This document shows, in pieces, positions 5,563-34,239 of a DNA stretch of 64,000 nt. Each line of letters starts with the position of its first letter. The stretch's first letter is position 1. The translations under genes and the position numbers were made by a program. The stretch covers positions 2,976,001 to 3,040,000 of the forward strand of contig CBDCTH010000012.1 in assembly GCA_965222155.1 (NCBI GenBank), read 5' to 3'. Below the pieces are notes generated by a model that did not search any database, had not been told where the DNA came from, and saw nothing but the letters and a program-made list of their open reading frames with translations. The DNA is from Gammaproteobacteria bacterium (GTDB taxonomy: Bacteria > Pseudomonadota > Gammaproteobacteria > Eutrophobiales > Eutrophobiaceae).

Positions 5563-6036
5563 ATGTTTGTCGCCGCGTTTCTGTTATTTGTCGTCCTGAA
5601 TGAACCGCACCAGTTTTCCATGCTCGATCTCTGGGAGAAAAAATGCAGGGACGGTGATGTCGAGGCCTGTCAGCGGTTTGAGGATGCCCAGGCTGGCGTC
5701 AGGAAGCTGGAGCGACTGGATGGACTGGCCTTGCGCTATGGAGAGAACGCGAACCGGGACGAACTGGAAACAGACGGCAGACCCCTGCTGAATTTGGCCT
5801 ACAAACAGGTGATGGAAGACTTTATCGAAGCCGAACATAATCTGGGCAACAAGGAACTGAACTATGACGATGCCGCCGTCAGTTACTGCGCCGACCATTT
5901 TCATGATTACTGGATAAACAGAAAATTATGGTGGCCTACCGACGACAACGGGGATCCAAGCTGGACGGATATTTATTATTACATCGTCGACCACTACTAC
6001 GGCATCTGTCTGCGGCGCTATTTCAACCAGCTTTAA
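5563..6036 (+). CDS. Hypothetical membrane-anchored protein
   Basis: 157-aa ORF directly after hppA, hydrophobic N-terminus, 4 Cys, no recognised motif. Confidence 0.6.
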   Translation: MFVAAFLLFVVLNEPHQFSMLDLWEKKCRDGDVEACQRFEDAQAGVRKLERLDGLALRYGENANRDELETDGRPLLNLAYKQVMEDFIEAEHNLGNKELNYDDAAVSYCADHFHDYWINRKLWWPTDDNGDPSWTDIYYYIVDHYYGICLRRYFNQL

Positions 6037-6140
6037 TCCACTTATTCCACGCGCTGCGGTTAACAACATGTACACGTGCCATAAACCGCTCTGCGGCGTC
6101 AAGTCGATCTAACCCGGATTTTTCATATATGGTTCGCCCC

Positions 6141-6430
6141 GGTATTGCAAGCACAATGTTCGCATTGACAAAGTGGGCATTGCAGCCCTATATCCGACCT
6201 CTTGATTGCGGGTCATTACGCCCGCGGGCCCCGATGGACTACGCGCCGTTGTGTCCTTATCACCAGGCCGGCTGTCACAGTGTGCGCCAGTGAGACATTC
6301 AGGGTCCCACAACGGCAGGGTTGCCTTGTTTGCCATCACGTTCATGTCGCTGCGCAATGCTTGGACGGTGTGTCCACTATCTGTTTATCCCGTTCAGTCT
6401 GTGAGTCATTCAATGTTAACCGGCAGGCGC
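6141..6430 (-). ncRNA. Predicted bridge RNA / seekRNA region of the IS1111 element
   Basis: A 9-bp stem (6245-6253 / 6308-6316) encloses an internal loop. Its strands (6290-6297 and 6260-6270) match opposite strands of the insertion target. A second stem-loop lies at about 6180-6244. Transcript ends unknown. Confidence 0.75.
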
Positions 6431-7507
6431 TCAGGCGGCCGCTTCCACGTGGTCGGCCTGGTACCTCTCCTGCTTCACCAACAAGGCATACGCCGTGCGC
6501 GCCATGCGATTAGCCAGGGCGACCGCCGCCACATTCTTATGTCGGCGTCTTAACACATCTTGCACCCAGCGACTGCGCTTATCGGTTTTCTTGTCCGACA
6601 CCCGCAACACCGCACGGGCACCGTGTATCAGTAAACTGCGCACGTAACTGTCACCCCGTTTACTGATCCCCAACAACTGCTCACGCCCCCCGGTCGACTG
6701 CTGCCGCGGCACCAACCCCAACCAGGCCGCCAACTCCCGACCATGACGGAATGTCCGCACATCCCCCACCGCTGCCAATAACGCGGTCGCCGTGATCGGC
6801 CCGATGCCCGGCATGCTCATCAATCGCTGCGCCTGCTCATCGGTCTTGGCCCAGTGCGCAATCTGTGCCTCCAACGCCTCAATACGCGCATCCAATTGCA
6901 CCAGCGCCTCATACAAACCCTGTAGCAACGCCCGGAACGGGATACTCAACCCATTCTCGCCATCGTCCAGTATCTCAGGCAGCTTTGCCCGCACCCGGGT
7001 ACGACCCTGGCCTATCTCCACCCCCTGCTCCGCCAACAACCCGCGTACCTGATTCACCAACGCCGTGCGCTGACCCACCGCCAACGAGCGCACCCGATGG
7101 ATGCTCTGCTGGTCCTGTTGCACCGTCGTCTTCACCCCCACAAACCGCATCGTCGGCCGTTGCACCGCCTCACACACCGCCTCCGCATCCGCCCGGTCAC
7201 GCTTGTTCGACTTCACATACGCCTTCACAAACTGCGGCGCCATCAACTTCACCTCGTGACCCTACCCGCGCAACACCCGCGCCCAGTGATGCGCCCGACC
7301 GCACGCCTCCAGCCCCACCCGACACGGCGGCAACTGCGCCAGCACCGCATTGAACTTCTCAGGTTTGTACTTCCCCGTCAAACGCACCTTCCCACTGGCG
7401 TCCTGTCCACAAACCTCTATCCAGGTCTTGCCCAGGTCAACACCCACGACCGTTATCGTTGTCTCTTGCTCTGCTGTATTCATCCGTTTGTTGCTATACT
7501 GACTCAT
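6431..7507 (-). pseudogene. IS110-family DEDD recombinase/transposase with one in-frame TAG at 7262-7264
   Basis: ORFs 7262..7507 and 6431..7252 are in the same frame (RVLRG*GHEVKLMAPQFVK). GVDLGK, GLEAC, KRDRAD, PGIGPITA, QQSTGG and ISKRGD are all present. Confidence 0.88.
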
Positions 7508-7823
7508 GGTTCGCTCCTCCTACTGTTAATGAAAAAACTTCATTATGGCTCATTAAAGCCGAATGTATAAGTGAGGGGCGAACCATTCCATTACCAGGCC
7601 GCTAGTAGCTATCGGATACATGTTTGCTGTCAATGAGTCATGGTAATCTATTGACAATGTCATCATTACATACTGCGCTTGATGCGCCCTCGCTTGTCTT
7701 TTTGCCGCCAACGGGCACGTGCTCCCTCAACCAGAGCTACGGCTATGCTTTCGGTCGCAGGCACCCGCTGGCGGCAAAAATCCTGCGCGATCATCGCATC
7801 AACTGGTGAGATATGCGGGCTAA

Positions 7824-9071
7824 GTGAACTTTTGGAAATCCTTTGGGCCAGGTATCCTCTTCGCCGGCGCGGCGATTGGAACCTCGCATCTCGTTCAGTC
7901 CACCCGAGCCGGCGCGATGTTTGGTCTGGGTCTGTTAACAGTCGTTATCGTCGCCAATCTTATTAAATACCCGGCGTACCGCTTCGGTCCGCTGTATGCC
8001 GTGATCACCGGCCGGTCGTTGATTGAAGGCTACCACGGCCTTGGCCGGTGGGTGTTGATTTTGTATATCGCAAGCGAGTTCGCTGTCATCGCTATCGTCA
8101 TTGCCGCAACGGCAATAGTGACTGCCGCAATCTTACTGGCTGTAAGCAGTGCTGCGGTTGATGCAAGATATGTCGGCGTCGCATTGATTATTGCGGGCAC
8201 TTCCGTGCTCGTAATCGGCGGCTATAACCTGTTGGATAAATTGACCAAAGTCTTCGTGCTGATTTTCACGTTGGCGACGTTCGTCGCAACGCTTTTATCG
8301 TTGCCTCGTATCGACTGGTCGTTGTCTCAATTCGCGTTACCGGGCATGGATATCCAAACTTTCGCATTTGTCATCGCATTGATGGGCTTCATGCCGTCGG
8401 GTATGGAACTGTCGGTTGTACAGTCACTCTGGTGCGTGGCGAAAAGCCGGGCCAGCGGCAGGCGACTACCGTTGTCGCATGTGCTGACGGACTTCAATAT
8501 CGGCTATGTCGGATCTGCGCTTCTCGCCGTGTGTTTTCTGCTGATGGGCGCAGGCGTGATGTATGCAGACGGTATCGTTCCGGAAACCCGGGCGGCGGGA
8601 TTCGCGAACCAGGTTATCGCTTTGTACACGGCAACCCTGGGAGGCTGGGCCGGTACCGTGGTAGGCGTCTCGGCATTGTTAGTTATGTTCACAACTTTGA
8701 TCACCGTTCTCGATGGAATGCCGCGTCTCGTTGCTGCCGGGATCGTTGCGCTTCGAAGCCGCGCTCAAACCGGCGCTGAAAACCTGGACCGCTCGCCCAT
8801 ACTTTTCGGCAGCATGGCCGTACTTGCCATTGCAGGCATGATCGTCCTGCTGTTTTTCATGAACAGTTTTCAGACATTCATCGACTTTGTAACGATTTCT
8901 GCGTTCATCGTCGCTCCAATAACCGCATTGCTGAATCATCTCGTGATTATTTCGGATGATGTGCCTGCTGAGCAGCGGCCGCATAAAGCGATGCTGAGCT
9001 GGAGTCTGCTTGGTATTCTCGCACTGTCCGGTCTGGCAATTGCTTTTCTCTATTGGAGATTTCTCGGATGA
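7824..9071 (+). CDS. NRAMP-like / APC-superfamily permease (putative divalent metal transporter)
   Basis: GPGILFAGAAIGTSHLVQSTRAGA N-terminal motif; about 11 TM segments. Confidence 0.75.
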   Translation: MNFWKSFGPGILFAGAAIGTSHLVQSTRAGAMFGLGLLTVVIVANLIKYPAYRFGPLYAVITGRSLIEGYHGLGRWVLILYIASEFAVIAIVIAATAIVTAAILLAVSSAAVDARYVGVALIIAGTSVLVIGGYNLLDKLTKVFVLIFTLATFVATLLSLPRIDWSLSQFALPGMDIQTFAFVIALMGFMPSGMELSVVQSLWCVAKSRASGRRLPLSHVLTDFNIGYVGSALLAVCFLLMGAGVMYADGIVPETRAAGFANQVIALYTATLGGWAGTVVGVSALLVMFTTLITVLDGMPRLVAAGIVALRSRAQTGAENLDRSPILFGSMAVLAIAGMIVLLFFMNSFQTFIDFVTISAFIVAPITALLNHLVIISDDVPAEQRPHKAMLSWSLLGILALSGLAIAFLYWRFLG

Positions 9072-33905: not shown

Positions 33906-34239
33906 CCCGGATTTCTCACCAGGTGATGCGATGATCGCGCCGGATTTTTGATGTGCGCCTTCCATGGCGCACACCCTGCGGGCATCCTGCGGATGTCCAA
34001 ATCTGCTCCTGGCAGATTTGTGCCGCCAGCGGGTGCCGGAGCCTGCCCCGTACTTGATACGGGGACCGAAAGCATAGCCGTAGTTCTGGTTGAGGGAGCA
34101 CGTGCCCGCTGGCGGCAAAAAGACAAGCGAGGGCGCATCCAGCGCAGTGGGTGATGGCAACAGAATGCTATAATCCTGATAACTCATTGACAGCAAGGTA
34201 CTTTCCGCTAATGACAAGCGAATTGGTGAGATATGCGGG
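33906..34239. mobile_element. MITE family A, copy 2 (334 bp, with nested palindromic modules)
   Basis: Ends CCCGGATTTCTCACCA / TGGTGAGATATGCGGG; CTAG duplication (33902-33905, 34240-34243); homologous to 7594-7819. Confidence 0.85.

Follow-up and report, generated by a model that had tools for sequence, protein, structure and literature searches.

An RNA-guided mechanism of insertion was published in 2024 for the IS1111-family insertion sequences (IS) ISEc11, ISPa11, ISKpn4, and ISPst6, which encode a seekRNA (Siddiquee et al. 2024, PMC11187229), and for IS621 of the IS110 group, which encodes a bridge RNA (Durrant et al. 2024, PMC11208160). The present analysis deals with a further element of this kind, located on the minus strand of a 64,000-nucleotide stretch of a Gammaproteobacteria bacterium genome (assembly GCA_965222155.1, contig CBDCTH010000012.1, positions 2,976,001 to 3,040,000 of the forward strand), which is called the window below. 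In the reading favoured here, in which confidence is high, the locus holds an IS1111 element sitting in the end of a repeat that resembles a miniature inverted-repeat transposable element (MITE), the 3' part of the element encodes an RNA of the seekRNA/bridge-RNA kind, and insertion would be guided by this RNA, the copy at hand being most likely inactive. The element adds a new target to a known system, in a copy that is probably dead, and provides one more natural guide/target pair for the catalogue of RNA-guided DEDD recombinases.

As described in the text of PMC11187229, IS1111 elements are marked by a 7-nt extension at the left end, by inverted repeats in subterminal position (7-17 bp), and by a non-coding region downstream of the transposase gene, and their transposases share the motif GL-P----S/T-G. 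The four elements presented there and the element of the window are alike in their DEDD transposase, their subterminal repeats, their 7-nt left extension, and the lack of a target duplication, as well as in the downstream non-coding region, where in both cases a top-strand match lies 5' of a bottom-strand match and overlaps it at the insertion point. The long form of the RNA measures 145-172 nt in the published elements, compared with about 165 nt in the present model, and in both cases a promoter is described or expected where the ends are joined. Unlike the published elements, the one of the window has a transposase whose identity stays below 60% with the plasmid-borne relatives found and does not exceed 64% with those from the genomes searched; besides, its target is the end of a MITE-like repeat and the copy is broken.

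Like IS621, the element has guide-like segments of two kinds, which would read the target in one case and its own joined ends in the other. In contrast to IS621, and as far as the texts of PMC11208160 and PMC11187229 describe it, the RNA is located here at the other end of the element and the order of the guides within each loop is reversed, with the right guide 5' and the left guide 3'. In addition, the subterminal repeats are long here, a helix closing the second loop was not found, and the left end and the right flank share the 2-nt core in only 11 of 24 elements. Finally, ISPpu9 of Pseudomonas putida, with its small RNA Ssr9, is also reported to have an RNA gene downstream of the transposase gene (PMC12288879), and its extra solo copies of the RNA gene can be compared with three relics found in the present genome; these relics are, however, truncated or rearranged, match the RNA model weakly, and modular movement is not claimed for them.

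The element and its relatives

The 1468-bp segment 6126-7593 (-) is an IS1111-family insertion sequence, in line with an initial annotation of the window. While the right end given there (6126) stands, the left end had been put at 7601 and is moved to 7593, since 7594-7601 (CCAGGCCG) is flank. Three pieces of evidence support these boundaries: copies of the target repeat that lack the insert read ...ATTTCTCA|CCAGG..., with zero extra bases; in public run X1, a contig connects 6124 directly with 7593 and leaves out 1468 nt (1 nt being ambiguous); and loose ends at 7593 in public runs read ...ATTTCTC. The joint in X1, whose shorter side is 30 nt long and which was accepted at a likeness threshold of 85%, serves the boundary only and is no proof of an empty allele. 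The comparison with public runs relied on contigs only; these runs are metagenome-like, and no RNA run was listed among those that contain the stretch.

The traits of the family are found throughout. The subterminal repeats are set in by 7 nt on the left and 3 nt on the right, a layout common to all of the 23 relatives whose ends could be placed from this repeat; the non-coding region is longer 3' of the transposase gene (305 nt, 6126-6430) than upstream of it (86 nt, 7508-7593); and the rejoined flanks restore an intact repeat end, 1 nt being ambiguous, which fits a specific target used in a fixed orientation without target-site duplication. The right ends of the 23 relatives and of the window read ...CCAT(A/G)(T/C/G)A or a near variant thereof. 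The transposase itself, scanned with X at an in-frame TAG, comprises the N-terminal DEDD (RuvC-like) domain PF01548 (54.6 bits for a cut-off of 29, E 1.4e-14) and the C-terminal domain PF02371 (95.5 bits for a cut-off of 21.3, E 2.6e-27), and its translation contains GLVPRQQSTG, thereby matching the family motif.

In a search of the class Gammaproteobacteria with the 273-aa C-terminal part of the transposase, 61 of 400 genomes contained matches at E <= 1e-40, none of which was more than 64% identical, and a search of genome contigs with the same part gave 2 loci only, at most 62% identical; plasmid records hold at least 5000 transposase matches, all of them below 60% identity. Altogether, the family-level data set comprises about 24 elements for which ends, targets, and RNA are defined.

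Within this set, the first 2 nt of the left end are those of the right flank in the 11 of 24 elements mentioned above, only the first base agrees in 11 others (mostly TA versus TG, the window included), and neither agrees in 2. The RNA bases that read the core track its flank version, and the TA of the left end completes the TATAAT of the joined-end promoter considered below.

A predicted structured RNA downstream of the transposase gene

From the 3' non-coding region, a structured RNA of the seekRNA/bridge-RNA kind is predicted, about 165 nt long (6340-6176). A covariance model (R1) built from 20 relatives, with the window excluded, matches 6176-6340 (-) over its full length with 90.9 bits (E 3.9e-23). 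The same model finds the RNA directly after the transposase gene in eight further loci, two plasmid records among these.

The conservation of secondary structure among relatives, known as a trait of seekRNAs, is apparent from both this score and the covariation. RNAalifold, applied to a MAFFT alignment (A2) of the last 240 nt of 21 elements, returns 26 pairs, 17 of which are compensatory, and draws a basal GAUGG/CCAUC helix, a 9-bp outer stem, a short CC.U/A.GG helix, an inner hairpin, and a GGCC/GGCC stem. In an alignment of 28 distinct sequences fitted to the model (A4), 96.8% of the cells are paired and 25 of 32 pairs are compensatory; none of 500 shuffles reaches the observed value, and partners slid by 1-3 columns pair in only 26-52%. 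The 9-bp outer stem, already pointed out in the initial annotation, turns out to be the most covarying helix of the family, with changes on both sides in all of its eight scored pairs. The inner hairpin had likewise been placed correctly at about 6270-6288: the model pairs 6288-6286 with 6272-6270, and two extra pairs (6290/6268 and 6289/6269) are possible by eye.

Predicted guides for the target

The claim that the two strands of the internal loop read the two strands of the element's own insertion site is supported by every family test run. On the 3' side of the loop, the 11/11 junction match put forward in the initial annotation is exact, TCACCAGGCCG at 6260-6270 (+) being identical to the junction TCA|CCAGGCCG. 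Only seven of these 11 nt (6267-6261) coincide with the guide position of the relatives, and the A at 6260 is conserved; when the 305-nt region was shuffled 5000 times with its dinucleotides kept, a match of at least 11 nt spanning the junction arose 13 times. On the 5' side, the loop strand UGUCUCAC (6297-6290) is present as announced and, together with A6298, pairs with the target at 7 of 9 positions of the real flank and 8 of 9 of the consensus repeat end. This top-strand guide is located 173 nt from the right end, the family range being 152-190 nt. The two guide strands overlap on target positions -1..+3, as is typical of seekRNAs, and jointly specify about 16 bp around the junction.

Every relative carries two such segments in its internal loop, which the outer stem and the inner hairpin delimit. 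The order and position of the guides, with the top-strand match 5' of the bottom-strand match, are shared with the relatives as well as with the published IS1111 seekRNAs. More precisely, the 3' loop segment of the relatives, found directly before a conserved AUAAGGA, consists of 7 nt, of which 5 are identical to the end of the left flank and 2 to the beginning of the right flank. When guides and targets were scored over fixed windows of 10 + 7 nt in 21 elements, the mean for the element's own target was 13.14 of 17, against 10.02 for foreign targets (n=420), and none of 10000 permutations reached the observed sum; similar figures were obtained with one more element. The own target outscores every foreign one in 11 of the 21 elements, and the RNA of the window scores 14 on its own target compared with 11 at most on 20 foreign ones.

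Sites that match the guides abound in the genome: the 13 nt covered by the canonical guides occur in 46 exact copies and 149 copies with one mismatch, versus 0 for the reversed pattern.

Segments matching the element's own ends

A second stem-loop (6180-6244) had been described in the initial annotation as carrying weaker matches to the joined IS ends. Both matches are present, UCCAU at 6238-6234 and AUAUA at 6193-6189, and throughout the family each of them covaries with the IS ends; the notion of a simple hairpin, on the other hand, does not hold, as UCCAUC is also the covarying 3' arm of the basal stem. With a segment matching the top strand of the left end on one side and a segment matching the bottom strand of the right end plus core on the other, this part of the RNA would resemble a donor-binding loop.

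Regarding the right end, in 17 of 21 elements the 7 nt that follow a conserved CCGG reproduce its last 5 nt together with the 2-nt core, and 6 of the 7 agree in the window. The segment follows the end variants ATGTA, ATACA, and ATAGA as well as the core variants CG, AG, TT, and TA, and its mean score is 6.81 for own ends versus 5.67 for foreign ones, with 0 of 10000 permutations reaching the observed sum. As to the left end, UCCAUCG is complementary to its ATGGA and therefore looks like a right-donor guide: pairing with left-end positions 3-7 is complete (5/5, G.U allowed) in 19 of 21 elements, compared with 38% of foreign pairings. For a possible donor loop of the bridge-RNA type, both segments exist and covary with the ends; a closing helix was not found, one of the segments is also the arm of an RNA-RNA stem, and one core base is mismatched in the window.

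The four guide-like segments follow each other along the RNA in the order right-target, left-target, right-donor, and left-donor, which, judged from the sequences, corresponds to the logic of bridge RNAs with both loops reversed, in agreement with published work and without amounting to a discovery. As a data set, the family offers covariation of all four guide segments with their DNA partners in IS1111-type elements, for which the experiments reported in the main texts of PMC11187229 and PMC11208160 cover the target guides only.

A more speculative view, which is considered possible and rather unlikely, is that in this branch of the IS1111 family the long RNA is a complete bridge RNA endowed with a switch, UCCAUC being held by GAUGG so that reading of the donor and folding are mutually exclusive. 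Such an RNA could toggle between a closed, target-only state and an open, donor-engaged one, or the GAUGG arm could read the other strand of the left end. If true, this switch would give the long seekRNA a role, which the text of PMC11187229 leaves open, and would explain why the short form suffices under over-expression.

Proposed mechanism and state of the copy

By analogy with ISEc11 and IS621, the RNA would be made, would bind the DEDD transposase, and would direct recombination: the two would excise a circular form of the element, in which the promoter TTGCAA-17-TATAAT would arise where the ends are joined, and the transposase-RNA complex would then insert this circle at sites matching the guides. 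A junction promoter has been reported for ISEc11 (PMC11187229, as described in its text), and CTTGCAA is conserved in the family at the corresponding distance from the right end; such a promoter may function here as well. Within the integrated element, a promoter scan gave 1 weak site, in the left end, for a chance level of 0.8.

The copy is most likely inactive because a nonsense codon interrupts the transposase at residue 82 and because a core base of the right-end guide is changed. The TAG, which the initial annotation had also seen, reads CTA on the + strand, and its alignment column holds a sense residue in 23 of 23 relatives (L in 12, M in 3, Y in 3, H in 2, and K, R, and F in 1 each). 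Among the differences listed for contigs of the public runs, none concerns 7262-7264, which by itself does not decide the status of the TAG. The element is therefore not an autonomous one with an intact transposase, which bears on its activity and not on its family membership. In the light of these data, the copy probably represents a decayed lineage.

It would be surprising if the locus were instead a live, autonomous bridge-recombinase system, with a TAG that is read through or stems from a sequencing or assembly artefact and with differences in the guides that are tolerated. Everything except one codon is intact, including both ends, all helices, and both target guides, and the contig depth summed over the IS in run X1 (218-542, versus 143 for the left flank) leaves room for other copies or variants. 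Nevertheless, the TAG falls into the catalytic domain, the core of the right-end guide departs from both the flank and 17 of 21 family members, only one full copy exists in 4.55 Mb despite 46 exact empty sites, and the remaining three right ends of the genome are truncated relics.

Points that weigh against RNA guidance

Several observations speak against the RNA-guided reading, or at least against parts of it. Concerning the structure, single-sequence folds of 6126-6440 (-) and 6170-6325 (-) miss the family structure and are no better than shuffles (z 0.93 and 0.25), so that the folding suggested in the initial annotation would, by thermodynamics alone, give no support; no Rfam match was obtained at E <= 1 over 5800-7900, and the RNA is accordingly outside the Rfam families. 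The alignment of 28 sequences, being fitted to the model, leans towards R1, its control being the independent RNAalifold result, and the relatives are kin, so that permutation counts overstate independence. Concerning the target guides, 6270-6268 overlap the conserved hairpin arm and the 11-nt match may therefore be partly coincidental, while the top-strand guide shows two mismatches with the actual flank. Concerning the donor side, no covarying helix closing the second loop was found, the only candidates being GCAA/UUGC near the right end and helices of 3 bp. Besides, UCCAUC pairs with GAUGG within the RNA, and its role as a donor guide is therefore inseparable from an RNA-RNA stem, covariation being unable to separate RNA-RNA from RNA-DNA pairing at this place. 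Finally, an 82-nt short seekRNA is sufficient for ISEc11 according to the text of PMC11187229, and the downstream half of the RNA may thus be dispensable.

That the match between non-coding region and site reflects captured DNA or chance, with a protein choosing the site by reading the repeat end, is nonetheless scarcely credible: although the 13 shuffles mentioned above also yield a match of this length, although the match partly overlaps a conserved hairpin arm, and although a protein could recognise the inverted-repeat end that forms the target, the two sides of one covarying loop represent the two strands of the site, at the positions where 20 relatives match their own, different targets, and for the family causality is demonstrated by the reprogramming of ISEc11 (PMC11187229, as described in its text).

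The landing site

The genome (4.55 Mb in 12 contigs, 53% G+C) carries hundreds of whole or partial copies of a repeat of about 244 bp, whose inverted ends read CTAACCCGGATTTTTCACCAGG... on the left and ...CTGGTGAGATATGCGGGCTAAG on the right. The repeat is called MITE-like because of these inverted ends and of the hundreds of pieces in the genome. The IS is located in its left end, between ...TTTTTCA and CCAGGCCG.... An IS1111-family element reportedly occupies the terminal inverted repeat of a Tn3-family transposon, always at the same position and in the same orientation; compared with that case, the host here is a non-autonomous chromosomal repeat. The landing pad is thus the end of another mobile element, which spares host genes, and, as far as annotation of this genome is concerned, the locus is to be described as a presumably dead IS inside a MITE and as no host gene feature.

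In the genome, strong over-representation is seen for the 13-nt motif across the rejoined junction, which lies nearly always within the same longer repeat. Four sites with up to two mismatches to the 13 nt covered by the canonical guides occur inside the window, among them the sister sites invoked in the initial annotation, at 33911 (+) with ATTTCTCACCAGG and at 7802 (-) with ATATCTCACCAGT. These came from the looser 13-nt searches: the full pattern of the rejoined flanks has no other occurrence in the window at up to three mismatches. Contigs with diverged flanks in two public runs (X4 and X7) join 6110 to 7823, the whole repeat and the IS being missing, which indicates relatives that lack the repeat at this locus. 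An imperfect palindrome of 39 nt (7699-7780), 74% complementary and with 4 nt between its arms, was also noticed in the repeat.

Other copies in the genome

Apart from the single full IS, the genome contains three short right-end fragments (L002, L003, and L004), which are truncated or rearranged and which model R1 matches weakly (30.4, 23, and 16.8 bits). The initial annotation had stated that other copies sitting in unrelated sequences would argue against its reading. This objection does not arise for two of the three relics, L002 and L003, which adjoin the same position of the same repeat end as the full IS; L004 is the exception.

L002 (1498-1665) is 80% identical to the IS over 168 nt. 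Its guide segments, UGUGGUG and UUUCAUCAC, are unlike those of the window, and its outer stem has lost part of the 5' arm; L002 appears to be a decayed sister lineage with slightly different guides. In L003 (1547-1645), an inverted duplication of the second-loop region (...CCATATATCCGACCTCT... / ...AGAGGTCGGATATATGG...) is matched by model R1 on both strands (30.4 and 23 bits). L004 (1487-1551, C12 about 193165-193229) is a 50-nt right-end relic with 98% identity, and the 15 nt beside its right end are found only there and in the guide region of the IS itself (window 6250-6264). An insertion of L004 into the guide DNA of another copy was considered and rejected, the junction being 3 nt off the place predicted by the guides and the similarity stopping after 15 nt. 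Finally, in run X1 the summed contig depth is about 218-1260 over the IS, above the 143 of the unique left flank, and contigs of this run differ by about 12% over 6987-7156, which indicates that related IS variants exist in that sample.

Feature coordinates and a third repeat copy

The positions of all features are collected in Table 1.

Table 1. Features of the IS1111-family element and of its host repeat, in window coordinates.
Feature	Position	Strand	Remarks
MITE-like repeat, left terminal inverted repeat as far as the insertion point	6111..6125	+	Left half of target; 6110->7823 joints in X4, X7
Whole IS1111-family IS	6126..7593	-	Left end (transposase 5' side) 7593, right end 6126; intact target repeats, 6124->7593 joint, loose ends
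Right-end extension, 3 nt	6126..6128	-	ATA in IS orientation; 23 relatives and window end in CCAT + 3 nt (TCAT in one)
Right subterminal inverted repeat, 12 bp	6129..6140	.	100% complementary to 7575-7586
TTGCAA, -35-like half of expected joined-end promoter	6145..6150	-	Then 17 nt, then TATAAT (last 2 nt of right end + first 4 of left end)
Predicted long seekRNA/bridge-RNA-like structured RNA	6176..6340	-	Full-length match to model R1
Right-end (left-donor) guide-like segment AUAUAGG	6187..6193	-	Last 5 nt of right end + core; first core base G vs T in flank, L002, L003, most relatives
Second-loop distal stem (6230-6227/6199-6196) enclosing hairpin (6225-6221/6212-6208)	6196..6230	-	Helices 6, 7: 100%, 92.5% paired; 2, 5 pairs compensatory
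Segment UCCAUCG	6232..6238	-	Complementary to top strand of left-end extension (ATGGA); 6237-6233 = basal-stem 3' arm
Outer stem of target loop, 3' arm	6245..6253	-	Helix 3, 8/8 pairs compensatory
Bottom-strand target guide, RNA CGGCCUGGUGA	6260..6270	-	Identical to left flank + core, target -8..+3; canonical part 6267-6261 (-5..+2)
Inner hairpin of target loop	6268..6290	-	Helix 5, 4/4 pairs compensatory
Top-strand target guide AUGUCUCAC	6290..6298	-	Pairs with target -1..+8; 7/9 actual flank, 8/9 consensus repeat end
Outer stem of target loop, 5' arm	6308..6316	-	
Basal stem 5' arm GAUGG	6333..6337	-	Helix 1, 96.4% paired, 3 pairs compensatory; same as left-end positions 3-6 plus one
Transposase gene, 358 codons	6431..7507	-	In-frame TAG at codon 82
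In-frame TAG (CTA on + strand)	7262..7264	-	Codon 82, inside catalytic domain
Third imperfect subterminal-repeat copy	7506..7519	.	Overlaps ribosome-binding site and start codon; 13/14 complementary to left repeat (7573-7586)
Left subterminal inverted repeat, 12 bp	7575..7586	.	Perfect partner of 6129-6140
Left-end extension TAATGGA, 7 nt	7587..7593	-	First 2 nt = left core copy
Rest of the MITE-like repeat	7594..7822	+	Right terminal repeat ends near 7822

Among these, the third, imperfect copy of the subterminal repeat is also found in the relatives, where it is complementary to the left repeat at 8-13 of 14 positions and covaries with it. This copy could mask translation in read-through transcripts, or may be a third site for the protein.

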